Assembly (NCBI GenBank): GCA_019897865.1
Contig: GCA_019897865.1_4532.1
Reading direction: 5' to 3' (one strand)
From: a phage
DNA: 64,000 nt
The notes beneath the pieces were generated by a model. The model saw nothing but the letters and a program-made list of their open reading frames with translations. It made no database searches and was not told where the DNA came from. Below are positions 41,671-61,590 of this stretch, piece by piece. A program made the translations under genes and the position numbers. Numbering within the stretch: position 1 is the first letter of the stretch; every line of letters starts with the position of its first letter.

Positions 41671-41705
41671 TCTTATTGATTTATAAAGAGTTTTTTATAA
41701 AAGAA

Positions 41706-41736
41706 AAGGGAACCTTTGCGGGTTCCCTTTTTTATT
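41706..41736. terminator. Bidirectional Rho-independent terminator between convergent SSB and fibre genes
   Basis: gggaacc tttgcg ggttccc hairpin flanked by AAAAGAAAA upstream and TTTTTTATT downstream. Confidence 0.75.
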
Positions 41737-44410
41737 AGTCGTAATATTTCAAACCTGTAATGAACTTCGATCCCCAATCCGCACTTGCGGCGGTGAACGT
41801 CAACATCCAAGTTGTAGCTGTACCAGTGAAGACCTCTCGTTGCACAGTACCATCAGTGTGGTAAATGTCCACGCCAGTATGTCCATTCTTAGGAATAGTG
41901 AAGGTAACAGCACTGGTAGTGTCTCGTGCATAAGAACAAACAAATGGTGTCCCCGCCCAAACTGGATTTGTCATATCACCCATCTCAAGCTGTGGAACCC
42001 AAGCAATAAGACCTGCCGTACCATCTCCTGCGAAAGTGTCTGATCCACTTGCATTCAAAGCTATAATCTCATAGGTTATAGATGCTTGTTTGGCAACTGT
42101 CACTTTGTGTAGAATTACACGATACCAACCATTCCCCATATCGATTATGTTTGCATCTGCACCTGTAAATGTTCCAGCTACAAGATCATAAGTCCCTTCG
42201 TTAATCTCATCTCCTGAAGTCAATTTGAGTTTCACTTTAGTGATCCCGTCTGGCTTCAAGAATACGGATGCCGCCCAGTGCTTACCTGCTGTAATATCAG
42301 AAGCTGTATTCACTGCTGATAAAATATGTTGTCCTGAAGTTGTAGAAGGTGTTAACTTGTAAGTGTTAGCCGTAGTTCCAACCGGAGAGTTGATTGTTGA
42401 TGCTGTGACTGTCAAGTTCGTCTTCAACCACGGGGAAGCTGTTGTCAAGTTATTGTTGATAAAGATATGTGTACGGTTGGCTGCTACAACACGTCTACCT
42501 TGTGGAGTTGTACCAACATATTCTAAAGGTGCTACGGGAGCAGAACTCTCTGTAGGTACAAGGATATCTCCAGAAGCCCTGGCATAACGGTTACTCCTAT
42601 TGACCTTTACATCCGTTGGAATAGTTTCTTGCGTCAAATCATAGTCCATCACAATCACCACAGCATTCACTGCGAGATAAGAACTATCTTCGGCAGTTAC
42701 CACACCTTGATAAGTTGCTCTACAACCGATACGACAATCCCCATCAGCAACCGCTGTAATAACGCCTGTAACGGGGTCAACTGTTGCTACCGTAGGGTCA
42801 TTAGAGAAATACTCAACAACCATACCAGGTAAGCTTGCTGCTCCTGTTGGTGTTATTTCTGCTACCATTGTTTGTGTTGTTCCTACATCCATCGCAGATA
42901 AGCTAGGGGTGTAAACGCTCAATGTTGAAGCATATCCTCCAGAGGTATCTGATAAAGTTGTTCCTTCAGCGTTTAAGGCTGTCATACCTGCATCAAAACC
43001 ACCTTCTGCATGGAAAGTCATTAAACCAGTAGATGATATTGTCATGTTTGCAGGGGCAGAAGAAGTGTATTTAATATTGAAAAGTTTACCTCCTTCTGGT
43101 CTAACAGAATGTGTCAACTGTTTAGTTCCACCTACAATACAAATTCCTAAAGAATCTGTAGTTAAGCCAGTTGCCAGAATATCGCCCGTAATCACGGAGC
43201 TTGCTATTGGTGTGAATTTATTATAGTTTAGACCACTATTGAACAGATACGAGGCTTTCCCATCTTTCCAAATACCGGAATAATACATATCTCCATTATA
43301 AACGAAAAAGGTTCCTTGATAACCTAATTGGTTAGTAACATCCATATTCAGCGTATGAACGCTTGTGAGCTTGTTTATATCCCAAGAACCCACTCCTTCA
43401 GGTTTAACTGGTTTTCCCACTTGGAGTGGATCTCCGCTCGCAGAATCATACCCCAAACCTAAGTTTGCAGTGTAGTTCTTACCAATAGCCCACAAGGAAT
43501 TATTGATCCCAACGAAAAAAGAGTGGCGGCTTGGTGGAAACTTCCATGTTGAGAAACCTGCTGCAAAGGTATCCAGTTTAGTGTAGGTTGTTTCTGTATT
43601 AGATCTAACATATAAGTAGTTTACTGTACCCGTGCCACCGGAGGTATCTCCTACAACTATTGTCTGGGAAACTGTATTGATGTAATCTTTGACATACACT
43701 GTTTCAGTAGCGGATATCTTGGCATTGACAAAAGCTGTTGTTGTGTTATTATTACCTGCTAAACCTTTACTAGCTCCACAAACACGCAAGGTTCCCACAT
43801 TGTTGACATAAGAACATTGGTTGTAACCTGCATCAAAAGCAACTGCTGCACTTGTTATCTGACGAGGAGTAGAAACTTCGTTAGTAGTACTTGCACCTAA
43901 ACTACCTACTGTGTTTTGACCTGATCCATAAAGAACACCACTATTCATTAACCAGAGAGTATTGTTATATCCTCCCTTAACCTCTTTAAGATTAGCTAAA
44001 GAGATAGTCCCTGTTATTACAGATGGAAAGCTGGTCCAAGTAGTTACACATGCGTCCGTACCACCTGCTGCTATAGATCCTACCAATCCTGCTGTCAATC
44101 CTGAATATTGCCATCCTCCACTGTTAGTTTTAATAACAAAACAACGATCTGCGGTAAACACATCCGCTACTACAGTAGAAGCTAAGTGGAAATTATTGAA
44201 TCGTGCACTACGAGTTCCATCTGCAATCTCACCAAAAAGGTTTGCGCCTTGAGTAAACAATCTACCATCATTAAGCAAAATTGCTAAACTGCTATTAGAA
44301 TTACCAGCATTATCTGGGTAATCTAAAGTGATTACTTTTTTAACAATACCTGCTGGCAGAGGAACGACACCAGTGCTGGTCATAATAGTAAATATTGGAA
44401 TTGGAAACAT
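41735..44410 (-). CDS. tail fibre/adhesin-like structural protein with RCC1-like repeats and Ig-like (BIG2) domain
   Basis: 891 aa; N-terminal RCC1-like repeats; mid BIG2-like VTAVADGDCRIGCRATYQGV; Thr/Ser/Gly-rich. Confidence 0.5.
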   Translation of the reverse strand: MFPIPIFTIMTSTGVVPLPAGIVKKVITLDYPDNAGNSNSSLAILLNDGRLFTQGANLFGEIADGTRSARFNNFHLASTVVADVFTADRCFVIKTNSGGWQYSGLTAGLVGSIAAGGTDACVTTWTSFPSVITGTISLANLKEVKGGYNNTLWLMNSGVLYGSGQNTVGSLGASTTNEVSTPRQITSAAVAFDAGYNQCSYVNNVGTLRVCGASKGLAGNNNTTTAFVNAKISATETVYVKDYINTVSQTIVVGDTSGGTGTVNYLYVRSNTETTYTKLDTFAAGFSTWKFPPSRHSFFVGINNSLWAIGKNYTANLGLGYDSASGDPLQVGKPVKPEGVGSWDINKLTSVHTLNMDVTNQLGYQGTFFVYNGDMYYSGIWKDGKASYLFNSGLNYNKFTPIASSVITGDILATGLTTDSLGICIVGGTKQLTHSVRPEGGKLFNIKYTSSAPANMTISSTGLMTFHAEGGFDAGMTALNAEGTTLSDTSGGYASTLSVYTPSLSAMDVGTTQTMVAEITPTGAASLPGMVVEYFSNDPTVATVDPVTGVITAVADGDCRIGCRATYQGVVTAEDSSYLAVNAVVIVMDYDLTQETIPTDVKVNRSNRYARASGDILVPTESSAPVAPLEYVGTTPQGRRVVAANRTHIFINNNLTTASPWLKTNLTVTASTINSPVGTTANTYKLTPSTTSGQHILSAVNTASDITAGKHWAASVFLKPDGITKVKLKLTSGDEINEGTYDLVAGTFTGADANIIDMGNGWYRVILHKVTVAKQASITYEIIALNASGSDTFAGDGTAGLIAWVPQLEMGDMTNPVWAGTPFVCSYARDTTSAVTFTIPKNGHTGVDIYHTDGTVQREVFTGTATTWMLTFTAASADWGSKFITGLKYYD

Positions 44411-44423
44411 TTAAACCCTCCAT

Positions 44424-44448
44424 AAAAAGAAAGCCCCTTTCGGGGCTT
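44424..44448 (-). terminator. Rho-independent terminator (minus strand) after collagen-like fibre gene
   Basis: aagcccc tttc ggggctt hairpin; minus-strand downstream UCUUUUUAU. Confidence 0.6.
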
Positions 44449-44451
44449 CTG

Positions 44452-46476
44452 TTATCGTGTTACAACAACCATGTCCACGATATCACCCACACCAGGATAC
44501 GTTAATTGCAAAATTGTTACTGCGTTAGCAGTAGTTGCTATTTCTGTATCATTTAGTGCTCCATAAGACGCATCTAGTGTAACCGTGTGTCCCGTTGTAT
44601 CTTGAATCAAATAAATCATTGCTGAAAACGCTTTAGGTTTTGTAGAGCCAGTGACACCAGGCCATGCTCCAACTGTCAGAGCGTCAGTTACTGTAACAAC
44701 ATACATATTGGAAGTTCCAGAAGGAGTCCAAGATGCTCCAGAGTTGGCAGTAGTTGTTTCAAGTTCCATGAAACCTGCTGTAACTCTAGTTGGTGTTATA
44801 GCTTCCGTAGGATCTGATCCGGATATTTCGATCCAATTTCCATCAGACCTACCATACGTCAAGCCGTCTTGAGGGGCTTCTGGTATACTAGGAAGAGTGC
44901 CTATAAGCGTCCACGTAGAAGAATCTGTTTTCTTAAACACTGCTCCAGTGGTAGTATTGAAGGCGTAATCATTGATAACACCGTCTCCTGCGACTGGATT
45001 AGTTGTTGCTACAAACCACTGTGCGCCGTCCTTACCGTTGGTCCCATCAGTACCGTTGGTTCCGTTTGTTCCAGGATCACCCTTATCTCCTTTATCCCCT
45101 TTTTCACCTTTGTCGCCTTTAATACTTCCCATGTCAACAAAAGATGCGGAATTGGTGTCTTGATCGTAGGTATAGATGTAAAGATTACTAGTGTCTTCAG
45201 TTAAATAGGCATCACCGTAGTTATTATAAACAGGGAGAGCTTCACTGTTCGGAACATGACCTTTAGCTGTAATTGATGTTCCTCCAAGACTGCCAACATT
45301 CATCCATTCCGTAGCATCTTGAACCCAAACATACAAATCATTATTAATTTTATATGCATCACCTACTTCTCCAGTAGGAGGAAGTTCAGCTTCGCTGTTC
45401 AGAACCCCGATAATCTCTAAACCTGATCCTGTTGCACCCACTGGTCCTTGTGGACCTAGTTCACCTTGTGGACCTCGCTCTCCTTGATCACCCTTGTCTC
45501 CTTTTGGACCTTTAAGTGAGGCAATAAAATCTACTTCTGTCCCTTCATTACCAGCATCCAGCCAACTTTGATATGCAGATTTCCCTTCATCTCCATCTGT
45601 TCCATCTAGACCGTCTTTTCCTGCCTCGCCTTGTGGACCTTGAGGACCAACAATATTACCCATGTTGACCCAAGCTGTCCCATTAGAGACATAAAGATTA
45701 CCATTGATAGAATAAGCTTGGCTTACGTTTTCAGAGTTAGGTTGTGGTAAGTTACTTGTAGAAGGCAAATCTCCACGATAATCAAAACCGTTGGCGTTAA
45801 CACCAGGTGCTCCCTGTGGCCCTGTAGGACCAACATCGCCTTTATCACCTTTTATAGAGGTAAGGAAATCATAAACAGATCCTGTATTACCATCTGCCAA
45901 CCATACCTCGTAAGCTGATTTACCTTCTGGCCCAAGAGAAGAAATAAGTTTCCAAACAGAACCATCCCAAGCGTAGATTACATCACCTACGATATAACCA
46001 TCCCCTGCAACGTTACCTGTGGATGGTAGTTCACTAGTGCTTGCTAATGATCCTTTAATATTAAGTTGAGCACCAGTATCCCCTTTCAAAGAGGCAAGCC
46101 ACTGTGCTTCTGTTCCAACAAAACCATTATCAAGTGCGATCTGATAAGCCGATTTACCAGCTTCAGGTATTGTTTCCGACAGATCATCAATCTGTTGCTG
46201 CATTGCCGTAAACTTGGCATTGATAATTGCTATATCATCAGCGGTCCCAACACTTTGCCATGCAAGGGAAGAAATACCACCTGTGGTGGCTGGCGTAGAG
46301 TTTGCTGGAACCACTTTAGGAAAAGTTCCTTTCCATTGGTAATAATTCCCTTCTGCTGCTAACAGCAAAACTTCACGGGAATTACGTAATGTAAAACCTG
46401 CCTCAAAGCTGCGACGTTTTCGATAAGTAGCTTCTACCAGATCGGCTATCGCACTATTAGGTCTTGTTAAATTCAT
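44452..46476 (-). CDS. side tail fibre protein with collagen-like Gly-X-Y stretches and phage tail fibre repeats
   Basis: 674 aa; GDKGEKGDKGDKGDPGTNGTNGTDGTNGKDG and KGPKGDKGDQGERGPQGELGPQGPVG; three GKSAY..WL..G..G....F..S.KG repeats. Confidence 0.7.
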   Translation of the reverse strand: MNLTRPNSAIADLVEATYRKRRSFEAGFTLRNSREVLLLAAEGNYYQWKGTFPKVVPANSTPATTGGISSLAWQSVGTADDIAIINAKFTAMQQQIDDLSETIPEAGKSAYQIALDNGFVGTEAQWLASLKGDTGAQLNIKGSLASTSELPSTGNVAGDGYIVGDVIYAWDGSVWKLISSLGPEGKSAYEVWLADGNTGSVYDFLTSIKGDKGDVGPTGPQGAPGVNANGFDYRGDLPSTSNLPQPNSENVSQAYSINGNLYVSNGTAWVNMGNIVGPQGPQGEAGKDGLDGTDGDEGKSAYQSWLDAGNEGTEVDFIASLKGPKGDKGDQGERGPQGELGPQGPVGATGSGLEIIGVLNSEAELPPTGEVGDAYKINNDLYVWVQDATEWMNVGSLGGTSITAKGHVPNSEALPVYNNYGDAYLTEDTSNLYIYTYDQDTNSASFVDMGSIKGDKGEKGDKGDKGDPGTNGTNGTDGTNGKDGAQWFVATTNPVAGDGVINDYAFNTTTGAVFKKTDSSTWTLIGTLPSIPEAPQDGLTYGRSDGNWIEISGSDPTEAITPTRVTAGFMELETTTANSGASWTPSGTSNMYVVTVTDALTVGAWPGVTGSTKPKAFSAMIYLIQDTTGHTVTLDASYGALNDTEIATTANAVTILQLTYPGVGDIVDMVVVTR
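45030..45125 (-). repeat. collagen-like Gly-X-Y triplet repeat within tail fibre gene (second block about 45425-45520)
   Basis: Plus strand shows periodic acc/tcc/ttt...cc triplets encoding Gly-X-Y on minus strand. Confidence 0.7.
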
Positions 46477-46512
46477 TTATCTCTCCTATCATTAGACCAT
46501 TCTATTGGAAGA

Positions 46513-46532
46513 AGAGGGGGAATCCCCCCTCT
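46513..46532 (-). terminator. GC-rich hairpin after tailspike gene
   Basis: agaggggg aatc ccccctct perfect stem; modest U content downstream on minus strand. Confidence 0.45.
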
Positions 46533-46538
46533 ATTCCA

Positions 46539-49500
46539 TTAGGTTGTTGGCACATCTACTACTGGCGTTGGGCGAATAACCGCAGTATTACCTACAGAAA
46601 CATTACTGGAATCATTAGGTATGGTTTTAATTCTAACTCCAGCACTTGTAGGCGTTACAATTGGATCTGCAATGTCTATTTTAACTGGGTTAGTCCACGT
46701 ATCATTATCTTGATAAGGTGCACGAGTAATAACTGTGTCCAAATCTGCTCCACCTACGCCAGCACCAGGAATACGGATACGTGTCCCTGCTGACAGAGGG
46801 TAATGATACAACCAAGAAGCATTTGTTGCTGTCCCGTTAGGAGTCAAGTTCTGTGTCAGGAAGGTATCTCCTGCCTGTGTAGCTCGAATACCGAAAGCTG
46901 GGATATCTGGAATATATGCCCCACTTGTTGTTACAAGGAAGAACGTATTATCCGCTTTGACTATCATATCACCTTTGTCAAACTCTTTCCCTGTTGGGAA
47001 ATGCATTCCATCAATGTTTCGACTAGGATTAGGCTCTAAGTAATAAACTTTGCCCGTTGTCCCTACAATAGCTCCAATACCACCTGCGATATTGGTATAC
47101 ATATTAGCTTCAACATTACAGTTGACACGATGAATATCCGAGTAACGGCAACGGCTCCACTGTGGACGACCAGTAACCATCGTCTTGCCATCTGGGTAAC
47201 AGTTTACGTTAACCATTTCAAGAACAGATTTTTCTCTACGGAAGAATCCATCATAAAATGTTCCTGGACCAGATTCAGGTTGACCAACACAATCGAAGAT
47301 ATTACAGGTGATGTTAGACATTGAAAGCCAAGAAGCTATACCGAACAACTGCAATGCAGCGCAACGAATATTTTCAAAGCTAACTCTGTTTTCATAACCT
47401 GGCCCAGCGGAAACTCCCGCAAAAACACGCCCAGTTTTGGTGTGAATGTTACGAACAGAATAGTTAAAACATGGGTTTGAAGGTCTACCCTGTGCCGGAA
47501 CTACCGGATTACCCTCTTCGTCCAGAACTGCGTTAGTTCCCCACTCCAAATAAATCATACGGATATTACTTGCAAGTGTGCTACCGTCTGTTTTAGGCTC
47601 TCCATAAACACCGTCAATCGTAAAATCTTTACTTCCATACATTACAACTGCGCCAGTTGCCAAACCTGTCCCAACAGATACGGTTTGATCTGGATCGCCA
47701 TGAATGTTTTCGATAGAAATATTACGACCAACTTCTACGTGGACAATCTGACGGCAACGTTTTGCAAAAACGTTACGAATTGTAATATTCTTGCAATATT
47801 GATCATCAGGGATTCCGTAACCATATGGTCCTTTACCAGCTACACCGATACCGATACCCCAGTTGGACAGAGGAATAGGAGCGTTAGTCCCATCGATATT
47901 AGACAGGTAAATATTCTCAATCACACAACCATCATCATAATGTTTATTGATGACATTCAGTTCTATCGCATCACCTTGCATGTCCATGAAGGTAAGGTTA
48001 CGGAAGACACCGCGTGTTACTGGTTCTCCTGTCCCTTGTTGAAGGATGCCATATAACCCGTTTTTAAAAGTACAATTATCAATTTCAAAAGTACCTGATA
48101 TTGGGTTGCCTTGGAATACCAAGCTACCAACTTGACCTGCGCGAGGAGCACCGTCCCACAAACAATCGAACATGCGCACAGCACCACCCCAATACATAAC
48201 ACGAGAGTTACGGAAAGTTGTGCCTTCTACTGTAGCATTCTGCACACGATAGTCGCGTTGACCACGGAACACACCACCACGCAAAGTGATACCTTGAATA
48301 TCAAAAGAGCTTGTCGTGAAAGTCATATCGCAACCGTAAGCATCGAGAATCTTACTTTTCGAAGCTTTTGCTGCTAACAGTGCCGCCTGGAAAGCTGCTT
48401 CTGGTGTGGTATAGGTAGTTGTATTGTTAGCAAATTCTGACAAGTAGACAACATCGAATAAATCGTTGTATGTTCCACCACGAGGGGTTAACAGTCCTTC
48501 CGTATTAGTTAGAACCCATGCGTTTGGACCTAATCCACCGCTTGTCTCTAACGTGTCAGAGGCCAAAATACTTTTTGGTAAACTTCCAGCCCAACGATAA
48601 CGACCAGCACCACGTCCAATCGTCTGATTTTTAGCTGTCAGAGTTACATTATTACCAAAGCTTGTAGGCAAATGAACAAACTGTCCACGTTCAACAGCTA
48701 ATGCAGAAAGATCTACAGATCCGCCAGAATAAGTCATTACTCCAGAAACAGACAAAGATGTTAAAGTCCCTGTGATGTTAGGAGGCAATGTGTAGGAAGA
48801 TTGTGCTACTGGATCATACAGAGCTTTAATCCCTGTTAATGATTGACCCGCTGTTGCGTAAGCTACTTCATCATCCAACAAACCGTATTTACGAGCAATA
48901 GTTTGTAAAGGTACTTTATCCATGCTTTCTGTCAGTTCTTCAGTTTTTGTTTCTAAACTGACAAGACGGTTCTCTAGATTAGGATCTGTATCTGCTGAAG
49001 CTACGATTTTACCAATATAAGCGAAAAGCTTGTTTGGCAGTCCTGTTGCAGGATCGTGTCCCAAAGGTTCAGATAAGATGATCTTACTATCTTCTATACG
49101 GAAAGCTTCCCCCAGAACCTGAATAACACCATTGATCGTAACAATAGCACTATCAAAGATGTAAGGAGGACTGATTACTGTTTCATAACCAGTTGCACCA
49201 GAATATACCCAAGGTGTGACTTCTGTTGCCAATTGTTCTGTCTTCAATCCCCACAATACCCAGTTGTTATCTCCTACTGGAGTACCTTGCATAGGGATTG
49301 GGTTTACCAATGTAGCATTAGGAGCATAATAATAACCGCTCAATACCCCATTCTGAAAATAACGTAGTTGGTTAAAAACTGTTTCGTTTGTGCCTTGCGC
49401 CCAATCCAATGGGCTTTTAAAGAAAAAGTTGTCAACAAGGGCTTTTCTCAGGGTTGGTATCAACCCTGATTCTGTTTCAATACTCTCTGTAGCACTTCCA

Positions 49501-49592
49501 TTAATAACATCATGGAGTTGGTTAGATGAGAAAATAACCAGGTCTACGCCCTGTTCGAGAGACGTTGCTGGATATGTTGGGAATGTTGCCAT
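46539..49592 (-). CDS. tailspike protein with right-handed parallel beta-helix (pectate-lyase-like, putative depolymerase)
   Basis: 1017 aa; repeated NxxIxNxxG-type beta-helix rungs (IENIYLSNIDG, ITIRNVFAKRC, ISIENIHGD); N-terminal anchor region. Confidence 0.65.
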   Translation of the reverse strand: MATFPTYPATSLEQGVDLVIFSSNQLHDVINGSATESIETESGLIPTLRKALVDNFFFKSPLDWAQGTNETVFNQLRYFQNGVLSGYYYAPNATLVNPIPMQGTPVGDNNWVLWGLKTEQLATEVTPWVYSGATGYETVISPPYIFDSAIVTINGVIQVLGEAFRIEDSKIILSEPLGHDPATGLPNKLFAYIGKIVASADTDPNLENRLVSLETKTEELTESMDKVPLQTIARKYGLLDDEVAYATAGQSLTGIKALYDPVAQSSYTLPPNITGTLTSLSVSGVMTYSGGSVDLSALAVERGQFVHLPTSFGNNVTLTAKNQTIGRGAGRYRWAGSLPKSILASDTLETSGGLGPNAWVLTNTEGLLTPRGGTYNDLFDVVYLSEFANNTTTYTTPEAAFQAALLAAKASKSKILDAYGCDMTFTTSSFDIQGITLRGGVFRGQRDYRVQNATVEGTTFRNSRVMYWGGAVRMFDCLWDGAPRAGQVGSLVFQGNPISGTFEIDNCTFKNGLYGILQQGTGEPVTRGVFRNLTFMDMQGDAIELNVINKHYDDGCVIENIYLSNIDGTNAPIPLSNWGIGIGVAGKGPYGYGIPDDQYCKNITIRNVFAKRCRQIVHVEVGRNISIENIHGDPDQTVSVGTGLATGAVVMYGSKDFTIDGVYGEPKTDGSTLASNIRMIYLEWGTNAVLDEEGNPVVPAQGRPSNPCFNYSVRNIHTKTGRVFAGVSAGPGYENRVSFENIRCAALQLFGIASWLSMSNITCNIFDCVGQPESGPGTFYDGFFRREKSVLEMVNVNCYPDGKTMVTGRPQWSRCRYSDIHRVNCNVEANMYTNIAGGIGAIVGTTGKVYYLEPNPSRNIDGMHFPTGKEFDKGDMIVKADNTFFLVTTSGAYIPDIPAFGIRATQAGDTFLTQNLTPNGTATNASWLYHYPLSAGTRIRIPGAGVGGADLDTVITRAPYQDNDTWTNPVKIDIADPIVTPTSAGVRIKTIPNDSSNVSVGNTAVIRPTPVVDVPTT

Positions 49593-49595
49593 TAA

Positions 49596-49931
49596 TTACC
49601 CCTTATTCTGTGTACGTTTAACTATGTCATCTAGCATCATTTGGATAGTCGCATTCTTGAGGTCCATAATCTTTTCAATTTTTTGCTCAAGGGTGTTATT
49701 ATTTGCCATTAATGTAGAGTTAATTTGATTTAGCATCTGGGTAAGTTCGGCTTTAGTTGCATAAGTTGATTCAACAAAGACCAACTTCTTCTCTAGCTCT
49801 CGACTTTTCTCCTCCATTTCCTCAAGATCAGAGCCGAATTTATCCATTTTTTGTTTGAAAAAGAACCAGATGACTCCGATTAAAGGGATTATTGCATCCT
49901 TTGCAAGTCCCCATGCTTCTTGAAATTCCAT
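49596..49931 (-). CDS. membrane-anchored coiled-coil protein
   Basis: 111 aa; N-terminal TM helix IIPLIGVIWFFF then heptad-like helical region. Confidence 0.45.
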   Translation of the reverse strand: MEFQEAWGLAKDAIIPLIGVIWFFFKQKMDKFGSDLEEMEEKSRELEKKLVFVESTYATKAELTQMLNQINSTLMANNNTLEQKIEKIMDLKNATIQMMLDDIVKRTQNKG

Positions 49932-49940
49932 AGTGATCCC

Positions 49941-51548: not shown

Positions 51549-51557
51549 TTAAACTCC

Positions 51558-52187: not shown

Positions 52188-52189
52188 TT

Positions 52190-53677: not shown

Positions 53678-53919
53678 TAGTCATCCTCTTTGGTAGATTG
53701 TGATCTGCCCCAGCGTAAATCAATAAGATTTTTCATGAGGCGAGAAGGAGTTATCATGAAAACAAAAGCCCAACCCATCCATTCAGGAATTTCTTTTTCT
53801 ATTCCTAAAAAGATAAACATGCCTGTCATGGTTAGCATTCCCAGTGCGTTCCACACTTTAGTAGAACTGATTTTGTTGTTTGGATAAGTACAAAACATTC
53901 CGATTAAAAACTTTCTCAT
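53677..53919 (-). CDS. small membrane protein
   Basis: 80 aa with two hydrophobic helices. Confidence 0.4.
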   Translation of the reverse strand: MRKFLIGMFCTYPNNKISSTKVWNALGMLTMTGMFIFLGIEKEIPEWMGWAFVFMITPSRLMKNLIDLRWGRSQSTKEDD

Positions 53920-54227
53920 GGTGCGTTCTCATTACTTTTTAAATCACGATATACAGCTAATTCCCCAAGGTCTACAGAACCCGCTGAATGCACAAGTACA
54001 GCAGCAGTACTAAGGCTTATAGCAGTAACCCCAGAACCAAGGTTAGCTGGTAAGGAGTAAGCACGCTGTGACACTTTGTCATAAATGACTTTGTAACCAC
54101 CTAAGTCTACACCTACAGCAAAGTAGACTACTTCATTCTGTTTAACACCAAACTTACGAGCAATGGCTTGTTTATTGGTAAGAATACCAGTGGAGCCTTT
54201 ACCACCTTGACTAAACATTTCGTTCAT
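53916..54227 (-). CDS. small protein homologous to an N-terminal segment of the 1017-aa tailspike
   Basis: 103 aa; YDKVSQRAYSLPANLGSG...AGSVDLGELAV aligns with YDPVAQSSYTLPPNITG...GGSVDLSALAV in 46539..49592. Confidence 0.5.
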   Translation of the reverse strand: MNEMFSQGGKGSTGILTNKQAIARKFGVKQNEVVYFAVGVDLGGYKVIYDKVSQRAYSLPANLGSGVTAISLSTAAVLVHSAGSVDLGELAVYRDLKSNENAP

Positions 54228-54247
54228 ATGTACCTCAAATTATTTTA

Positions 54248-54270
54248 CCCCCCTCCTTCGGGGGGTTTTT
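54248..54270. terminator. GC hairpin with U-tract on the plus strand, inside leftward late operon
   Basis: cccccc tccttc gggggg followed by TTTTT on +; on minus strand followed by UAAAAUAAU and an RBS. Confidence 0.45.
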
Positions 54271-54272
54271 CA

Positions 54273-56543
54273 TTATCTGACTACGAATTTACCAAGGCTA
54301 ATATCGTTTATCAGAGTTGCAACGATGTTTGCCAGTTGGGTGGTTGTTAACGTGTTCACATCACCACCACGCAACTGTCCAGCGTTGGTGAACGGGAATT
54401 GTTGCGGGGTTGCGCTATTGGCAAACTGGTTGTTAGCCTCATAACGTTTTGTTGGTACAGGGTTGTACCCAATACTGCCTGTGGTTGTGTCAGGAGCCAC
54501 GCAGTTCGTAATATTCACTATAGCGGCAGAACCACTACCATTTGTATATATTGGCCTGTTAACCGTTCCGAATGGTTGCACAGCTACCAGTCTGTTAACA
54601 ATAACACTCTGTGAGGCTAGCGCCTGTAAATAAGATTCTGCGCTCCCGTTGCACCCCCTCAAGTTCACATTATCAACATCTATGTGGCGGCAGTTAATGA
54701 TGACGATATAATGCCCATTTTCTGTGTTAGGGTAAGCGCCTACTATGCGAACATTTTTTAATGTTAAATCCGTGGTTGGAACCGCAGCAGGCCCACCGTT
54801 GAAAACAAACCCTTTTGCACCATTTGCAAGTGCGTGTATCGTAATGCCGTCAAACTCGATGTCGGCAAGATTAGTCGTGGTATTGGCTGAGTTTGCCAAA
54901 AAATAAACAGCCTCAGCAGAGCAACCTGATATCAAGAAGTTAGAAAAACGCATCCTTGTGTTTTCTACCGGATAGAAGCGGCATAACAAACCCTGCGAGC
55001 AGTTACGAATAACAACGTTATCGTAGGATACGTCACTAGCTCCTTCAATTGCGACACCTGCGTTCGAACTTTCTACATATAGTCCAGTAACTACTCCATT
55101 ACGGAAATTCCCTCGAAGACCGTGGCTTTCACAGTTTTTGATTGTAACGGCGTTTATGTTAACTCTTGTGATAGCAGTGCCATCACCATAACCGTTCACA
55201 AGGTCGTCTGACTGAATACGCAAACCGTTACCACCAGAGGTATTAATGCTCACATCGTTAATCATAAGATTAAGCGTACGGTTTGGGCGACGTGATGAGA
55301 AGAACAAGGATGAGGCCCAAGTGTTTCTGCAACGGATATGATGGACGTGCGCCTCTGTGGGGTCGTTAACAATAATTGCCATGCCTTGACGATTGCTGCC
55401 GTCCGGCTGTTGGATTTTCCCACGTCCACAATCGTGTGAATACAGACTGTCAGCCAACGCCCAGCGACCATAATCCATTGTTACGTTACTGTTCCACGCA
55501 CCTTGTAATTCACACCCTGAAAGCTCAAGCGTGCCAGTGGATTGCATAGCTAGCCCAACCCCAGGGTCAAATGACGCATCCTGTCGGTAGAAATCGAACA
55601 GGAAGTTGCCAACAATGCGGATGTCATATGGCGTATAGTCATATTCCTGGTTTGTTTCGTTCCAGGTTCGTGGTGATCTCAACCAGAACTGACGTGAATC
55701 AACGGTTACTTTTGGCAGCAATGGCTTGAGTCGGATGTCTCCCTGAATAATGAAGATTCCTTCAACATTCACAGGAGAATAACCAATGTAGATATTACCA
55801 GCCTTTGGCAACAAACGAGTAAGCTGTGCATCATTCTGGGCAATCTTCCATCCAGTAACTACTTCGTTAAAAAATGATGCCGGGAATAGCTCGTATGTCT
55901 CATTAATTACAGTTTGATCAAAACTGGTCACAGTCACCGATGAAGTAAGTGCAGAATCTAGCATCATCAGTTTGCCATTCACCCTAATAAACATTACTCC
56001 GGACGGGATAACATCACCGACAGACAACGAACGATTGTTCTCTGTTGGGAAGCAGGAACCACCGTAAAAACCTGATGATACGTTGGTAGAAAAATCACTG
56101 TATTTCACCCAGGCATTTGACGATACTCCGCCAGTACTATCCGGAGTAGAATTATCAGAAATAGTTTTTGGGAAAGAGCCTGCCCAGGTGTAACACTGAC
56201 CCGCTGCGATATGCCAAACCGCATCCTCTTTACTGTTTACTGTAGCGCCTTCTTCAAAGCTACCATTGACAAGGGTTAACCCTGCCTCAGCAAGACTACG
56301 ACGCCACTGTTCACGATCATTAAGAAGATTGTTATTCAACTCTTCCTGAACAGTATTACCATTTGAGGATTGTATTAAATCTGCTCCATCTGTATCTTTC
56401 AACTGGGTGGCTAAAACCACCCCAATGTCAGTAAGAAAGTTGGAAACTGTGCTTTTAACAGTTTTATCAGGTTGATCTAAAACCAGGTAATCTGAACCAT
56501 TAACTTTTGATGTTTCGGGTAAATTAGTAATTGTAGTTGACAT
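54273..56543 (-). CDS. tailspike protein with parallel beta-helix (putative depolymerase)
   Basis: 756 aa; distinct N-terminal domain; beta-helix rungs (VTIKNCESHG, VVIRNCSQG, FLISGCSAE). Confidence 0.6.
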   Translation of the reverse strand: MSTTITNLPETSKVNGSDYLVLDQPDKTVKSTVSNFLTDIGVVLATQLKDTDGADLIQSSNGNTVQEELNNNLLNDREQWRRSLAEAGLTLVNGSFEEGATVNSKEDAVWHIAAGQCYTWAGSFPKTISDNSTPDSTGGVSSNAWVKYSDFSTNVSSGFYGGSCFPTENNRSLSVGDVIPSGVMFIRVNGKLMMLDSALTSSVTVTSFDQTVINETYELFPASFFNEVVTGWKIAQNDAQLTRLLPKAGNIYIGYSPVNVEGIFIIQGDIRLKPLLPKVTVDSRQFWLRSPRTWNETNQEYDYTPYDIRIVGNFLFDFYRQDASFDPGVGLAMQSTGTLELSGCELQGAWNSNVTMDYGRWALADSLYSHDCGRGKIQQPDGSNRQGMAIIVNDPTEAHVHHIRCRNTWASSLFFSSRRPNRTLNLMINDVSINTSGGNGLRIQSDDLVNGYGDGTAITRVNINAVTIKNCESHGLRGNFRNGVVTGLYVESSNAGVAIEGASDVSYDNVVIRNCSQGLLCRFYPVENTRMRFSNFLISGCSAEAVYFLANSANTTTNLADIEFDGITIHALANGAKGFVFNGGPAAVPTTDLTLKNVRIVGAYPNTENGHYIVIINCRHIDVDNVNLRGCNGSAESYLQALASQSVIVNRLVAVQPFGTVNRPIYTNGSGSAAIVNITNCVAPDTTTGSIGYNPVPTKRYEANNQFANSATPQQFPFTNAGQLRGGDVNTLTTTQLANIVATLINDISLGKFVVR

Positions 56544-56551
56544 TTTTACTC

Positions 56552-58705
56552 CTATATATAAAATTTTTGTGTTGTTACTAAATCTTCTCCAGATTTAGTG
56601 GCTAATGTAATTCCACTTATGGTGGCAATCTCAACATTTACCTGTTTAAGAGTGATATCCTGTAAATAAACGTTCAAAGGCACGTTACCCATATAGAAAA
56701 CTTGGGATTGAGAATTAACTACCGTGATAGAATCGTGCATTATTTGAGGATAGGCCCATATATATTGTGTAAGTCCGTCAAACTTATTGGCGTTCAACAC
56801 TATGTTACCTATAATCATTTTCCAAAGATACGTGCGGTAGTTTGATTCAGGATCAAAGCCATACAAAGGTGCAAGAGTAGCATCTGGAACAAAACCTGCA
56901 AGATAATGTATCTTATCATAACTAAAACCTAATTGTTCATTAGGTATTGTGATAGCGTCAAAAGATTTTTCCATCTTACCTTCCAACAACCAGTCATAAC
57001 ATTCTGAACAATAAAAGTCGAAGTTTTCTGGGATATAATAATCTTTAGGGAAGTTAACAAACTCCATCATACCGTTACCTAAAATGGATGGCACAAATGG
57101 TAATAATGTAACTTTAGCTCCAGGATAGGCTAATCTAGTATCTGTTGCAAACTTTGCAACTCTTAATCCTAGTTTACGAGACAAAAATGCATAGTATTCG
57201 TCAAACGGTGTTCCTGTTTTATAATTATCTATTGTTCCTACATCTTGTGCAAATAAACCTGTTTCTGTGTTGAATGCTAGTTTAGTAGTGTAATCGTATA
57301 TACAAGGCATTTTACTCGCTGTATTATACCACCACCAAGGCTCACCAATTTGAATGACAACTGGAATATTATTAGCTTGCGAAATAGATGCTATTTTATT
57401 AATAACATTTTGCAAATATTTCATACCTTCGTCAATAGTTGGAGACAACACGTAACTAGGAGGCTTATACCCTGTTGCTGCAAGAGCATCGTTCCAATCA
57501 TGCTGGACCCATTCAACAGGACAAACTGTGCTCATCAACTCAAAACTTAAAGAGTTCATTATTGTGTAACCCTTCTCGTTCGCTATAGAATGGAAACTAT
57601 TTAGCCAAGCTTCTGTAGCTGGATTCAGGAAGACAGATCTATTTAAAGCCCAAGATGTTCCGTTCCATGAGAACTCATAATAGTGAGACATTCCATTGTA
57701 ATGGTTAATCATTCCACGATAACCTAGCGCATATGTATTATAAATAACTCTCTCTGGAGTCAGATTATACATATCGTCATAAGATGTGCACATGCGAATA
57801 TCATGTTCAGGCTGGACAAGGTTACTGACTTTCATCATACTATAACCAGAAGTAGGTTCAAGAAGAGTGAAAGTAAACCAAGCCTCTTGACTATCAATAG
57901 GCACAATCTCTTCTATTTCTTCATACCTTGCTGTAATCAAAGAGAAGAAAATATTATCTACAGCACTCATGTCCAAAGGAATATCATTATTAGGACCAGA
58001 GAAGATATTACCAAAATCTAATTTGATTGTAGCTGTTTTACCATCTTCTGAAATATCTGAAGCATAAAATCCTAAACTAACATAGTGGACACTTTTATCC
58101 AAGAGAGTTACAGTCAAAGTTGGCACCAAAGGTTCTTCTTTAAAACCTGGCATGTTTTGACTAATTTCCATTTTAAACCAAAGTTTCTCTGAACTTAAAT
58201 CTGTGTGGGGTAAATACCCAACACCTTTATGGTCATATTTGTCAACTGTGCTCCAGATAACCCCTGCCAAACCTGCTGTTGTTCTGTTTACAAATCTTGC
58301 AGTAAAAGAGTCTCCATGAGATACAATAGAACAACTTTCCGTTGCTTGAGAATCTATTGTCCAATACATAGGAGAGAACATTTTAACGTCTTTTGTAGTC
58401 CAAGTTATTGGAGTAGTATTTTCTTGGATCGTAGTTATAATACAGTTGATGGTCGTTTCAACCATCATGTTATTTTGACTAATCCCTGAAACTTGGAGGG
58501 AGAAGTTAAGATCTATTGAGTTCTTTGGTCGTTCAAATACTTCAACCACAATGGTAGCAGAATCAGCATCATCAGGGAACACAAGTGTTCCCGATTTTGC
58601 AATATAATCTCTACCAGCGACTGCTGTTCCGTCAACAGTCGTGTAGTTAAATGAACTCGCATTTACTCTTTTGTCTCGCGTGACAGTAAATATAGCTTGT
58701 TTCAT
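56552..58705 (-). CDS. baseplate/tail-associated protein with N-terminal Calx-beta-like domain
   Basis: 717 aa; FNYTTVDGTAVAGRDYIAKSGTLVFPDDADSATIVVEVF resembles Calx-beta. Confidence 0.45.
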   Translation of the reverse strand: MKQAIFTVTRDKRVNASSFNYTTVDGTAVAGRDYIAKSGTLVFPDDADSATIVVEVFERPKNSIDLNFSLQVSGISQNNMMVETTINCIITTIQENTTPITWTTKDVKMFSPMYWTIDSQATESCSIVSHGDSFTARFVNRTTAGLAGVIWSTVDKYDHKGVGYLPHTDLSSEKLWFKMEISQNMPGFKEEPLVPTLTVTLLDKSVHYVSLGFYASDISEDGKTATIKLDFGNIFSGPNNDIPLDMSAVDNIFFSLITARYEEIEEIVPIDSQEAWFTFTLLEPTSGYSMMKVSNLVQPEHDIRMCTSYDDMYNLTPERVIYNTYALGYRGMINHYNGMSHYYEFSWNGTSWALNRSVFLNPATEAWLNSFHSIANEKGYTIMNSLSFELMSTVCPVEWVQHDWNDALAATGYKPPSYVLSPTIDEGMKYLQNVINKIASISQANNIPVVIQIGEPWWWYNTASKMPCIYDYTTKLAFNTETGLFAQDVGTIDNYKTGTPFDEYYAFLSRKLGLRVAKFATDTRLAYPGAKVTLLPFVPSILGNGMMEFVNFPKDYYIPENFDFYCSECYDWLLEGKMEKSFDAITIPNEQLGFSYDKIHYLAGFVPDATLAPLYGFDPESNYRTYLWKMIIGNIVLNANKFDGLTQYIWAYPQIMHDSITVVNSQSQVFYMGNVPLNVYLQDITLKQVNVEIATISGITLATKSGEDLVTTQKFYI

Positions 58706-58713
58706 TTTACCCC

Positions 58714-61590
58714 TTACTCGGTAACGTCCACACTAATGTTTGCCATTGTCAAAACAGTAAGTGCAGGAATATTGCTCGAATCCAAAACAGGTAATGCATT
58801 TTGGGGATTAAGTTTTTTGTATAAAGCATACAACCCAAAACCACGTAACAACTCTCCAGCGTGGAAGCCAAAGAAGACTCCGTTATCACTATCTGGTCTA
58901 GGAGCGGCACTCCAACAACCATTCATGACGTGATTAGGACCAAGAACAATATAGTTTTCCTGAATAAGTTCAAAACAGCGGTCTGCTACTATTTTAATGT
59001 TAGGAATTTCTGAATCATATCCAGCCATCCCCATTATAGCACATCCCGCCATAAAGAGCGCAGACATGTGACTTGTAAAGTCATCTACAGGCGCAGCCAC
59101 TTCTCCATTGGGATAAAATATTGTTGGTGTTCTTCCTTCGTTGTTATCTTGGAACCATTTCAGATAGTTGATCCAGTTTTTACAAACTGTTAAAAGTTTT
59201 TCAGGAACTTCTGCTCCTCGTTGTTTCAGTTCGTATACTGTATGACACGCACAGAAGAATGCTCGTGCTTCATAACCATCCCAAGCTTTATCGTTCCAAT
59301 GATACATTGTGAACTCATTCTTGTTTCCGTATTTATGAGCATCCCAACGATCCCAAACATAAGCTTGTGCCATTGGTCCAGGCATCACAGGGGCAAACTT
59401 ATTATAAAACCACATTTGTGAATCATATAAAAAGTCTATACTGTTGTTCATACGAACCCAATCAATATCTCTCCCTTTAAAACAATATAAGGATGGGTAT
59501 TGATAACCTGGGTAAGGAATACCACGCCAACCGTCATATAAGGCTGTGTTAGGATCACTGATATTGGAAAATGGAATGATTCCTGGAGTATAATTCAAAC
59601 TGTTAAGTTTGTAGTCCAGTATTGTACAATCTCCAAGTTTTGCTGTATAAGGATTTTCAGATGAAACTGTAACCCTGAAATACATTGTGTAATCATCACC
59701 AGTGGCTGAAGAATACAAAGATGGGATATCGTTAACGCAATAAAAATCGATTGCCCCTGTCAAGCCATTTGCAGGTTCAGAATCCAATGCAATATTGATC
59801 TGATCAACAGCAGTCAGGTTTATTGACGAAGGTTTTGCCTCTGTGTCTTCGTGATTAGGTTGCCAAGTACTTAATTTGAAATCGGCAGGACTTAAAGCTT
59901 TAGTAACCCATGCAGAATTTGTTTTTTCTAACATGGCCCACCATCTCCAACCTGCAGAATCCGTAATAGTGATGTTAAAATCATCTGCGTATGAACGATA
60001 CGTAATAGATTTTAAATTGGCTGTTTTAGTTGGTGTTAACCAAAACCCAACAGTAAAACCACCATCTGAATCCATATTAGCAGAAACTATCTGATCACTA
60101 TTTGTCCCAGCAATACCAGTTGCATATTTATATTGTATCACAGTATTGCTTCCCCAGTCAACAATGATTCTAGGTTCAGCAATAATATATACACCACCTC
60201 CAGGAGGTTCGGTGCGCATAAAACTGGATAAAGGTATATCCATCTTAGTCATATTAGCTGCACCAAGAGGTAAGCCACAACGATATGTCACTGTGTCTGT
60301 TTCACTCTTAGTCTTGCTTAATTCTAACTCTGGACGGAAAAGAACACCTTCCCCTGCATCATCTACACCTTGAAACTCAATACGCAGTTTTGAATTCTGA
60401 TCCACTCTGAACCAAACTGCCTGTTGTTCTAGAGTTGTTTGTGCTGCAACATCTTGGCGAATTACTGTGTATCCTAATTCATCACGAGAATATTTAGGTA
60501 TTGCTGTAGATGGGTATGAGTAATCATACGAGATACCATCTGTAAAAGGAATTATTGCTGTCGTAGATCTACGGAAGAATTTATCAAACATATCGATGTT
60601 TGAGTAGTCTTGACACAACAATAAAGAAGATTGCCAGCAAAGCCAGTATTTTCTCTCTCCTGTGATCTGATACATCAAGTAGTTTGCATCACACCACCAC
60701 GTTTCAGCATCGGAAGCATTATCTTGATAACCTAACTCTACCGGAACGTTTACAGGACGGTTATGCCACATCTCATTACGCTTAAGCAGATATCCACCGT
60801 GTTCTACAGGGTTGCATGTAGCGTAGTTGAATTTATAATCACCGTTCACAGAAGCATTTTTAAGTTGCACTGTTCCATATTCTGCGAAGCTGTGACCTGT
60901 AGATAAAATGTTACCATCCCAATCAACTTTACGTCCTAGACGGTCTATAATCCATTCAACGTCCCACTGATCTCCATATTCTTTCCAGTTGGTTGAACCA
61001 TCTGGGTTAGTTGCATACACTGTTGCGTTAACAGAGTTCCAACCAAGATTACCATTGAAAGCAAACCAAGCTTTATCTAAGTATTCTCCCCAGTGTGGCG
61101 CACCTTTAGGAATAACAGTCCTTCCGTTAATCCAAGTCATCATGCTACCTTTGAACCCGCCGTGCGTAGGATATCCATCATCTGTGAGAGGGTAGTGTGC
61201 TAAACGTGGTTCTTTACCATTGATGATCCAGTTGGGACGATATTTAGCCGGAGGATCAGGAATAGGTTGGCCCCCGAAGAAGTGATCTATATAGGCTTGC
61301 CAATACTTCTCGGCAGATTCAAGATATTTTTTATCCCCTGTAGCCAAATATGCATAAGCAAAACCAGTGATAAGCACAGATTGACCTTCGGTAGTAGCGT
61401 CACCGTTTGGTTGCCCTTCCTGCGCTGTCCAGTTAATAAAGTGTCTGTTGTTCGCCAATACGTTTTGTGGGTTGATAATGTAGTGCTGAACCGTAGGATC
61501 TATAGTAAGCCCAGTATTTCTTTCCAGAAACTGAACCAACCCTTCAATCAACTGAAACGTGTTGTCAATATTGTGCTTAACTCTTGACAT
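58714..61590 (-). CDS. large baseplate/tail-associated protein, possible glycan-degrading enzyme
   Basis: 958 aa, Trp/Tyr-rich; no secure motif. Confidence 0.4.
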   Translation of the reverse strand: MSRVKHNIDNTFQLIEGLVQFLERNTGLTIDPTVQHYIINPQNVLANNRHFINWTAQEGQPNGDATTEGQSVLITGFAYAYLATGDKKYLESAEKYWQAYIDHFFGGQPIPDPPAKYRPNWIINGKEPRLAHYPLTDDGYPTHGGFKGSMMTWINGRTVIPKGAPHWGEYLDKAWFAFNGNLGWNSVNATVYATNPDGSTNWKEYGDQWDVEWIIDRLGRKVDWDGNILSTGHSFAEYGTVQLKNASVNGDYKFNYATCNPVEHGGYLLKRNEMWHNRPVNVPVELGYQDNASDAETWWCDANYLMYQITGERKYWLCWQSSLLLCQDYSNIDMFDKFFRRSTTAIIPFTDGISYDYSYPSTAIPKYSRDELGYTVIRQDVAAQTTLEQQAVWFRVDQNSKLRIEFQGVDDAGEGVLFRPELELSKTKSETDTVTYRCGLPLGAANMTKMDIPLSSFMRTEPPGGGVYIIAEPRIIVDWGSNTVIQYKYATGIAGTNSDQIVSANMDSDGGFTVGFWLTPTKTANLKSITYRSYADDFNITITDSAGWRWWAMLEKTNSAWVTKALSPADFKLSTWQPNHEDTEAKPSSINLTAVDQINIALDSEPANGLTGAIDFYCVNDIPSLYSSATGDDYTMYFRVTVSSENPYTAKLGDCTILDYKLNSLNYTPGIIPFSNISDPNTALYDGWRGIPYPGYQYPSLYCFKGRDIDWVRMNNSIDFLYDSQMWFYNKFAPVMPGPMAQAYVWDRWDAHKYGNKNEFTMYHWNDKAWDGYEARAFFCACHTVYELKQRGAEVPEKLLTVCKNWINYLKWFQDNNEGRTPTIFYPNGEVAAPVDDFTSHMSALFMAGCAIMGMAGYDSEIPNIKIVADRCFELIQENYIVLGPNHVMNGCWSAAPRPDSDNGVFFGFHAGELLRGFGLYALYKKLNPQNALPVLDSSNIPALTVLTMANISVDVTE

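Follow-up and report, generated by a model that had tools for sequence, protein, structure and literature searches.

The DNA analyzed here is a stretch of 64,000 nucleotides from a phage (contig GCA_019897865.1_4532.1 of GenBank assembly GCA_019897865.1), hereafter called the window, in whose coordinates all positions are given. Our subject is the block of tail genes at 41735-61590, which we extended to 63425 to include the baseplate genes (Table 1). A preliminary description of the window, made from the sequence alone, had placed an arsenal of large receptor-binding proteins in this block. The open reading frames (ORFs) that it named, which we designate by their lengths in amino acids (aa), are all present in the ORF list at the positions given in Table 1, on the minus strand and in one leftward block. 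The run of genes is tight, with overlapping start and stop codons, and reaches at least 63922; at approximately 41.7 kb it meets plus-strand replication genes head-on. Terminator-like hairpins lie 3' of the 891-, 674- and 1017-aa genes (41704-41731, 44430-44449 and 46517-46529, respectively). The RCC1/Ig-like, collagen, Calx-beta, Tfa and J-like domains that had been attributed to these proteins were confirmed by Pfam as RCC1, Big_2, Collagen, Calx-beta, Caudo_TAP and Baseplate_J, and the gp25-like gene proved to be the 208-aa ORF. Table 1 also contains two genes that the preliminary description had missed, those of the 157-aa mini-fibre and of a 103-aa orphan N-domain.

Table 1. Genes and other features of the tail block, in order along the window. 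Percentages are amino acid identities.
Feature	Position	Strand	Evidence
891-aa protein 'TfpM1'	41735-44410	-	RCC1 24.3 bits (cut-off 21.7), Big_2; phrog_11922 'tail protein' full length
674-aa collagen-like tail fibre, phi92 gp151 homologue	44452-46476	-	Tail_spike_N 70.5 bits, Collagen 46.4 bits; phrog_15437 tail fiber
1017-aa tailspike, phi92 gp150 ('colanidase') homologue	46539-49592	-	Pfam Tail_spike_N; phrog_6117 'colanic acid degradation'
111-aa protein, phi92 gp149 homologue	49596-49931	-	phrog_15210 'lipoprotein'; 76% to phi92
181-aa Tfa chaperone for the adjacent 353-aa fibre	49941-50486	-	Caudo_TAP 49.7 bits; phrog_136
353-aa short tail fibre, phi92 gp147 'fibre III' equivalent, Mu gpS-related	50487-51548	-	phrog_4465
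209-aa wedge protein, phi92 gp146-like	51558-52187	-	Wedge pair: Pfam DUF2612/Baseplate_J, phrog_6, phrog_4056; 80-87% to phi92
495-aa J-like wedge protein, phi92 gp145-like	52190-53677	-	Pfam Baseplate_J; 80-87% to phi92
80-aa predicted membrane protein, phi92 gp144-like	53677-53919	-	phrog_1322; hydrophobic segments in translation
103-aa intact ORF, orphan tailspike N-domain	53916-54227	-	PHROG matches to first ~95 residues of many tailspike families
G+C-rich hairpin CCCCCCgaaggaGGGGGG	54246-54266	.	Between tailspike stop codon and 103-aa ORF; terminator-like match
756-aa chimeric tailspike, slot of phi92 endosialidase gp143	54273-56543	-	Tail_spike_N 60 bits (cut-off 25)
717-aa protein, phi92 gp142 homologue	56552-58705	-	Calx-beta 42.5 bits, NCTSP_N, TIM-barrel_NCTSP; 79% to phi92
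958-aa protein 'TfpL', phi92 gp141 homologue	58714-61590	-	83% to gp141; predicted fold
157-aa mini-fibre 'TfpS3', phi92 gp140 homologue	61590-62063	-	phrog_9017 tail fiber; 83% to gp140
208-aa sheath initiator, gp25-like	62063-62689	-	phrog_120; 73% to phi92 gp139
244-aa central spike	62691-63425	-	Pfam PF18352 and PF21930; 73% to phi92 spike

All of the large proteins match phage tail PHROG families over their full length with an E-value of 0, and therefore the large ORFs are not chance frames. The idea that they are mis-called or non-structural genes must also contend with above-threshold Pfam domains, homologues with solved structures and a tight colinear operon, and we give it almost no credence; as chance or mis-called ORFs, it is refuted by the Pfam and PHROG matches together with the megablast and tblastn identity to known phages described below.

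We performed a megablast search with positions 41735-61590 against 50,697 phage records. Fifty-four of these records cover at least 80% of the block, and the top matches are members of Phapecoctavirus (TSP7_1, Ro121c4YLVW, P3322, UP17, phAPEC8 and others), with 97-98% DNA identity over 86-90%. We also compared each protein of the window by tblastn with five Phapecoctavirus loci and with phage phi92. The 891-, 674-, 1017-, 353-, 495-, 209-, 958-, 717-, 157-, 208- and 244-aa proteins and Tfa showed 97-100% identity to Phapecoctavirus, and the proteins below this range all lie in the area of the tailspike slot: the tailspike itself (76-96%, N-terminus only), the 103-aa ORF (85-86%) and the 80-aa ORF (89-94%). 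The identity to phi92 was 73-87% over essentially the full length for the 958-, 717-, 157-, 495-, 209-, 208- and 244-aa proteins. In addition, the gene order, compared by annotation, corresponds one-to-one with phi92 gp138-gp151, in the order hub, spike, sheath initiator, mini-fibre, gp141-like, gp142-like, tailspike slot, small membrane protein, wedge pair, short fibre, Tfa, gp149-like, gp150-like and gp151-like. Based on the identity to Phapecoctavirus and the synteny with phi92, we conclude that 41735-63425 is very probably the baseplate and tail-fibre module of a Phapecoctavirus, that is, of a phAPEC8-like E. coli myovirus (Stephanstirmvirinae), and that it encodes a phi92-type multivalent adsorption apparatus.

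Modules of this kind have been known since 2012, and what is new in the window is confined to a swapped tailspike allele of a familiar kind. According to a 2017 review (PMC5380687), the 'multivalent adsorption apparatus' of phi92 was described by Schwarzer et al. in 2012, and phi92 has at least five receptor-binding proteins, with gp143 as an endosialidase, gp141 and gp142 as glycosidases, gp150 as a colanidase tailspike and gp151 as a tail fibre. In a 2026 cryo-electron microscopy (cryo-EM) study of phi92 (PMC13450770), the wedge (gp145/gp146), the sheath initiator (gp139) and the spike were built, and the fibres attach to the wedge platform. Fibre III is gp147, which was fitted into density, the tip of fibre I is tentatively gp143, and fibre II is without an assignment; further fibre candidates are gp15, gp140, gp150 and gp151 (PMC13450770). 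Joint presence in the virion is known from this phi92 work only, and it covers the homologues of the 495-, 209-, 353-, 208- and 244-aa proteins and, tentatively, gp143. As for Phapecoctavirus, AV125 has four tail-fibre sets and two tailspikes and has been called a 'Swiss army knife' (PMC10844046). A 2025 paper on the subfamily names the proteins TfpL (958 aa), TfpM1 (891 aa), TfpM2 (681 aa), TfpS1 (353 aa) and TfpS3 (157 aa) (PMC12695924), and a 'proteomics' paper on an O177 Phapecoctavirus is in silico work. Baseplates with multiple receptor-binding proteins are the accepted explanation of the broad host range of phi92-like and phAPEC8-like phages. The earlier proposal, a multivalent adsorption apparatus that probably includes polysaccharide depolymerases, agrees with these published accounts of the same block in phi92 and Phapecoctavirus. 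The preliminary description had not recognized the block as a system already described.

The gene that sets the window apart is that of the 756-aa tailspike, which is a gap in every megablast alignment of the block. Only its 5' ~390 nt match Phapecoctavirus, and the remainder shows approximately 80% DNA identity to gene 66 of phage G7C, to Shigella phage MK-13 and to Enterobacter phage fGh-Ecl02. The encoded protein begins with the conserved Stephanstirmvirinae anchor (aa 1-54, 93-96% identical to phAPEC8 and phi92), has Tail_spike_N at aa 92-149, and from approximately aa 75-150 onward consists of an imported beta-helix module. Residues 1-152 are 84% identical to Ro121c4YLVW. From residue 75 to its end (75-756), the protein aligns with the last 682 residues of G7C gp66 at 74% identity and with MK-13 gp200 at 72%. 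Among the 50,697 phage records, G7C, MK-13 and fGh-Ecl02 are the only carriers of this receptor-binding module, and no member of the Stephanstirmvirinae in that set has it. Relative to the closest relatives, the exchanged segment runs from ~54237 to 56127-56183 (blastn), which puts the imported DNA at approximately 54237-56140. The G+C content is 0.44-0.50 across the imported module (window positions ~54300-56300) and 0.33-0.39 in its flanks; this elevation fits a recent gain of the module from an E. coli-like (prophage) source.

We then considered where else the module occurs. In a set of 5.8 billion protein clusters, the best matches to it reach 82-83%, and the close homologues carry PF13229. 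Many P22-like prophage tailspikes of E. coli (726 aa, with a head-binding domain) are 80-81% identical to it. Of the two nearest metagenomic copies (82-83%), one adjoins tape-measure and ERF/SSB genes on a sipho-like temperate contig (L010, 6001-8196); the other follows a Tail_P2_I gene in a P2-like tail cluster (L011, 732-3122). Thus, the tailspike module circulates among at least six phage architectures.

The preliminary description had read the 756- and 1017-aa proteins as beta-helix tailspikes, and this assignment held for both. An AlphaFold2 (AF2) model of the 756-aa protein has an overall predicted local distance difference test score (pLDDT) of 79.9, and a run of short strands from aa ~230 to 680 lies mostly above 90. 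The top Foldseek matches of the model are the CBA120 tailspikes TSP3, TSP1 and TSP4, the HK620 and Sf6 tailspikes, and GH87 and GH28 enzymes, all with a probability of 1.0. Going by this model, the body of the protein may be described as a right-handed beta-helix that serves as a receptor-binding or depolymerase module.

The slot in which this gene lies is filled differently in the relatives. An endosialidase-like protein occupies it in phAPEC8 and phi92, and a GDSL-type spike in SKA64; TSP7_1 and Ro121c4YLVW have other alleles, and the group of Schickermooser, ESCO13 and Ro121lw has no tailspike gene at all. In Schickermooser (L009, 13695-15758), the 717-aa homologue is cut to 687 aa (96% identity over aa 1-683), and its gene lies directly beside that of the small membrane protein. 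Because the contents of the slot vary and it is empty in Schickermooser, we regard it as an exchangeable and dispensable specificity slot of the subfamily.

Next to the slot lies the 103-aa ORF, which is 83-87% identical to the N-termini of the full-length spikes of Kuttervirus, FSL SP-076 and G7C gp63.1, and which aligns with the 1017-aa protein (aa 230-302) at 48% identity. This stub is common to some Stephanstirmvirinae at 85-91% and is missing from phAPEC8 and Schickermooser. The hairpin at 54246-54266 adjoins the 3' boundary of the swapped cassette, and window positions 53953-54431 align at 78.8% (blastn) with the 5' end of G7C gp63.1, the intergenic hairpin and the 3' end of gp66. The G7C record annotates a repeat in this g66-g63.1 intergenic region, and the G7C hairpin has been proposed to promote module exchange (bioRxiv 10.1101/542787). 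These alignments suggest that the 103-aa ORF is probably the remnant of a second tailspike of the gp63.1/Kuttervirus type, lost from a two-spike cassette.

Given that the slot is dispensable, as Schickermooser shows, and that the 103-aa ORF is plainly what truncation has left of a tailspike gene, one could suppose that both the tailspike and the stub are non-functional recombination debris, so that the chimera fails to assemble and the phage uses its other fibres. We consider this very improbable. The 756-aa ORF runs uninterrupted from the conserved anchor and ends in the C-terminal residues that also end G7C gp66 and MK-13 gp200, and its junction falls in or beside the conserved Tail_spike_N region, where the other alleles of the genus also diverge. 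The pLDDT above 90 through most of the beta-helix also argues against debris.

If the chimera does function, then it introduces the question of which receptor its module recognizes. To approach this, we turned to the prophage copies. Of 5426 complete E. coli genomes, 27 have P22-like prophage tailspikes that match the module DNA at approximately 90% identity over 1.5 kb (for example, NZ_CP091020.1, 3502695-3504212, and NZ_CP043334.1, 1496048-1497562). Of these 27 genomes, three sets of strains could be linked through published papers to serogroup O8 or to sequence type (ST) 410. The carrier strains STEC306-308 belong to serogroup O8 and ST88 (PMC9227347). The carrier WCHEC115106 shares a nearly identical chromosome with an O8:H9 ST410 isolate (PMC9405272). 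The third carrier, BA22372, belongs to ST410 clade B4/H24RxC (bioRxiv 705905), and three tabulated strains of this clade are O8 (PMC12753057). Given that the traceable prophage copies sit in O8 or O8-linked strains of two unrelated lineages, ST410 and ST88, the distribution hints at the O8 polymannan as a candidate target of the module family.

The second tailspike of the block, the 1017-aa protein, is built from an anchor (aa 1-225), an N-domain of the TSP1/gp63.1 type (aa 226-300), Tail_spike_N (aa 302-361) and a WcaM-like catalytic body. Residues 226-372 match the N-domains of CBA120 TSP1, TSP3 and TSP4 and of G7C gp63.1 (E-values of 1e-26 to 1e-30), and residues 426-1000 match the solved structure of phi92 gp150 (PDB 6E0V; E-value of 1.4e-79). 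The body is also related to WcaM (NCBIfam, E-value of 1e-25). These matches to 6E0V and WcaM are the basis of its assignment as a beta-helix tailspike. In tblastn, the protein is 100% identical in Phapecoctavirus, and its first 215 residues are 75% identical to phi92. When compared with branched tailspike systems, the window has N-domains of the TSP type in the 1017-aa protein (aa 226-300) and in the 103-aa ORF, and Pfam found no docking domain of the T4 gp10 type. Degradation of colanic acid by gp150 has been reported as a potential or predicted role (PMC13450770), and the 1017-aa tailspike would probably likewise degrade colanic acid or a similar slime polysaccharide.

The remaining fibre genes resemble known tail fibres to different degrees. 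The 353-aa short fibre is 76% identical to phi92 gp147 over aa 1-267 (tblastn), and its C-terminus matches the phiTE short tail fibre (9CUY_c; E-value of 5e-23). In BASEL, the short fibre was related to Mu gpS and the glucose of the lipopolysaccharide (LPS) core was proposed as its receptor (PMC8594841), and by analogy the 353-aa fibre probably binds the LPS core. Its chaperone, Tfa, gave no tblastn match in phi92. The 674-aa fibre opens with Tail_spike_N, continues with globular repeats that four short Gly-X-Y segments separate, and ends in a knob; it is 60% identical to phi92 gp151 over aa 3-674 (tblastn), and its C-terminus matches the phiTE tail fibre 9CUY_g. In the 157-aa mini-fibre, the C-terminal ~100 aa are common to other tail-fibre PHROGs; a PDB sequence search with this protein gave nothing.

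The 891-aa protein consists of an RCC1-like beta-propeller (aa ~40-330), Big_2 Ig-like domains (aa ~400-590) and a C-terminus (aa 580-831) resembling the head spike fibre of a gene transfer agent (GTA). The last of these matches the RcGTA head spike fibre of Rhodobacter capsulatus (PDB 6TB9; E-value of 4e-14) and the NCBIfam family GTA_spike_fiber (73.7 bits against a cut-off of 36). The protein is 99-100% identical in Phapecoctavirus, whereas phi92 matches the Ig part only, at 62% (tblastn), and TfpM1 has been reported as missing from Justusliebigvirus (PMC12695924). It is probably a glycan-binding fibre or decoration. In the preliminary description it was counted as a tail fibre or spike; its RCC1/Ig domains were borne out, but its tail position is in question because the C-terminus is a GTA head-spike-fibre domain.

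The 958- and 717-aa proteins, which had also been counted among at least five large fibre or spike genes, are of a different nature. The 958-aa protein had no Pfam, NCBIfam or PDB sequence match, and its structure was predicted from an alignment of 36 sequences. The AF2 model (pLDDT of 86.1; predicted template-modelling score of 0.80) is a split (alpha/alpha)6 barrel resembling glycoside hydrolases (GH8/GH76/GH88/GH105-like), with inserted beta-sandwiches similar to carbohydrate-binding modules (CBMs). Its Foldseek matches are CBM11, CBM22 and GH48, and those against the PDB are weak or local only. Foldseek gave no match between this model and N4 gp65, so that a structural link to the N4 sheath is not established. 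The 717-aa protein has Calx-beta at aa 4-82, an N-domain like that of N4 gp65 at aa 107-292 (and 269-344) and a TIM barrel like that of N4 gp64 at aa 299-658. Pfam identified the latter two as NCTSP_N (PF23844, 59 bits) and TIM-barrel_NCTSP (PF23845, 268 bits, E-value of 2e-79). Compared with chains M and I of PDB 9LC0, the protein matched gp64 with an E-value of 4e-30 and gp65 residues 343-416 with an E-value of 2e-12. The sheath of N4 is built from a heterodimer of gp64 and gp65, the latter being the receptor-binding protein of that phage (PMC13434306). We considered a role as an N4-type non-contractile tail sheath and rejected it: only gp65 residues 343-416 were matched, and the 717-aa protein cannot be the tail sheath here because the phage is a contractile-tailed myovirus, equipped with a true contractile sheath and a sheath initiator of its own. 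It is more probably a glycan-binding or glycosidase appendage of the baseplate.

The two proteins appear to belong together. A metagenomic protein of 1557 aa (P0097) is a one-chain fusion of a 958-like part (aa 13-960, 44% identity) and a 717-like part without Calx-beta (aa 968-1538, 52%), and based on this fusion we suppose that the 958- and 717-aa proteins act as a pair. Other relatives of the 958-aa protein stretch to 1400-1650 aa, with differing C-terminal additions. In all, the ORFs and domains in the proposed list of at least five fibres and spikes were verified, but these two are glycosidase-/CBM-like globular proteins, neither fibres nor spikes, in agreement with the older 'glycosidase' labels of gp141 and gp142.

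We also weighed a narrower reading, in which just some of the proteins on the list bind receptors. The 958/717 pair would then be conserved structural or enzymatic parts of the baseplate that have no influence on the host range, while the 891-aa protein would decorate the head or neck, and approximately four receptor-binding proteins (353, 674, 1017 and 756 aa) would be left, with or without the 157-aa mini-fibre. To this we assign a probability a little short of even. Relatives of the 958-aa protein occur at 43-55% identity and constant length from Enterobacteriaceae (prophages of Enterobacter and E. coli) to Pseudomonas and marine bacteria, which differs from typical receptor-binding proteins; judged by sequence, such conservation of a family is unusual for a receptor-binding protein. 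For both proteins, the identity is 96-100% to every Phapecoctavirus in the comparison and 79-83% to phi92, and, since they are so strongly conserved across hosts, they are unlikely to set the host range. Their predicted folds, an (alpha/alpha)6 barrel and a TIM barrel, are globular rather than fibrous, and the fibre screen of the phi92 study flagged neither gp141 nor gp142 (PMC13450770). For the 891-aa protein, the match to the RcGTA head spike fibre points in the same direction. On the other hand, glycosidase-/CBM-like folds and Calx-beta are typical of proteins that engage glycans, the receptor-binding protein of N4, gp65 (PMC13434306), is partly homologous to the 717-aa protein, and the 2017 review tabulates gp141 and gp142 among the virion-associated enzymes of phi92 (PMC5380687). 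This narrower reading refines the explanation by a multivalent adsorption apparatus and does not contradict it.

The genes that complete the block are those of the baseplate core and of two small proteins. The central spike was identified from accessions PF18352 and PF21930 and from synteny with phi92, and the roles of the spike and of the sheath initiator were taken from the phi92 cryo-EM study. Two small hydrophobic proteins sit inside the structural block, the 80-aa protein and the 111-aa protein, and both are kept in phi92; the latter has a hydrophobic N-terminal segment and a coiled-coil-like C-terminus. When the block was searched for repeats able to mediate exchange among the receptor-binding genes, no meaningful ones emerged, whether direct or inverted, and matches to sigma-70-like promoters were not enriched (53, against 51.5 in shuffled sequence).

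Beside the observed gene content, homology, predicted folds, synteny, chimeric junctions and foreign G+C content, we propose a working model of the apparatus. The wedge proteins (495 and 209 aa) would bear several sets of appendages. The Mu gpS-like short fibre (353 aa), folded by Tfa, would make the terminal binding to the LPS core, and the gp150-type tailspike (1017 aa) would probably degrade colanic acid or a similar slime polysaccharide. Additional glycan contacts could be supplied by the 674-aa collagen-like fibre, the 157-aa mini-fibre and the 891-aa RCC1/Ig/GTA-fibre protein. The 958- and 717-aa proteins would probably form a pair and may build an arm where the exchangeable tailspike docks. 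That tailspike, of 756 aa, would set the serotype tropism, as a conserved anchor joined to a beta-helix depolymerase module gained horizontally from a pool that includes G7C gp66, the tailspikes of Ackermannviridae and the P22-like prophages of E. coli.

Several points weigh against parts of this model. The phi92 cryo-EM study placed none of gp141, gp142, gp150 and gp151 in density (PMC13450770). The Foldseek template-modelling scores of the 756-aa model are just 0.2-0.33, and its residues 1-74 are modelled with low confidence. The direct Pfam Beta_helix match of the 1017-aa protein falls below threshold. The head-spike-fibre-like C-terminus of the 891-aa protein means that it may not be a tail component, and the arm or scaffold role of the 958/717 pair is a conjecture. 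More generally, virion positions, enzymatic activities and receptors are what we infer rather than observe. We also formulated a more specific joint proposal, namely that the 756-aa tailspike is an unsampled allele (at most 83% to the 5.8 billion clusters and in no sequenced Stephanstirmvirinae) drawn from the prophage pool, with tropism for an O-serogroup, maybe O8; that the 958/717 pair forms the arm of phi92 fibre I or II; and that the 103-aa protein is a functional plug or adaptor. That all of these parts hold together seems to us rather unlikely.

The window thus adds another natural case in which a tailspike cassette has moved among myovirus, N4-like podovirus, Ackermannviridae, P22-like, sipho-like and P2-like backgrounds, here with the junctions mapped, and these junctions can be used as a design template for host-range engineering. 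The 756-aa protein is a candidate O-antigen depolymerase allele, possibly specific for O8. In addition, the fold prediction and the P0097 fusion support the homologues of gp141 and gp142 as a paired carbohydrate-active unit, which could help to assign the fibre densities of phi92 that are still unresolved.

Finally, we compared the block with the systems that it most resembles. Phapecoctavirus (phAPEC8, Ro121c4YLVW, TSP7_1, SKA64 and others) has the same gene order and 97-100% identity except in the tailspike, the 103-aa ORF and the 80-aa ORF, and none of the alleles in those phages is related to the receptor-binding part of the window tailspike (aa ~150-756). In phi92, a Justusliebigvirus, the hub-side baseplate proteins, gp140, gp141, gp142, gp145-147, gp149, gp151 and the N-terminal part of gp150 correspond at 60-87% identity, and the two phages share the tailspike anchor (aa 1-54) as well as the concept of several co-expressed fibres, spikes and glycosidases. 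They differ in the tailspike slot, where phi92 has the endosialidase gp143 and the window the 756-aa chimera. Phi92 also has the 202-aa Ig-like gp152 in place of the 891-aa RCC1/Ig/GTA-fibre protein and does not have the 103-aa stub, and its gp150 (804 aa) is approximately 210 aa shorter than the 1017-aa protein. Compared with the N4 sheath, the 717-aa protein unites both domain types, gp65-like and gp64-like, in one chain and adds Calx-beta; most of gp65 (1382 aa) is without a match, including the C-terminal D9-D10 that bind or gate the tail plug in N4. With gp66/gp63.1 of G7C (Gamaleyavirus, N4-like) and the Ackermannviridae spikes (MK-13 gp200 and fGh-Ecl02), the tailspike shares its C-terminal ~680 aa at 72-74% identity. 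However, the N-terminal ~380 aa of gp66 are missing and the Stephanstirmvirinae anchor stands instead, on the virion of a myovirus. The downstream hairpin and the 5' end of a gp63.1-like gene are colinear with G7C, and in the window that gene is truncated to 103 aa. The P22-like prophage tailspikes (PF09008) have a body that is 80-81% identical in protein and approximately 90% identical in DNA over 1.5 kb, but they carry the P22 head-binding domain and belong to temperate podoviruses, whereas the spike of the window carries the Stephanstirmvirinae anchor and Tail_spike_N.

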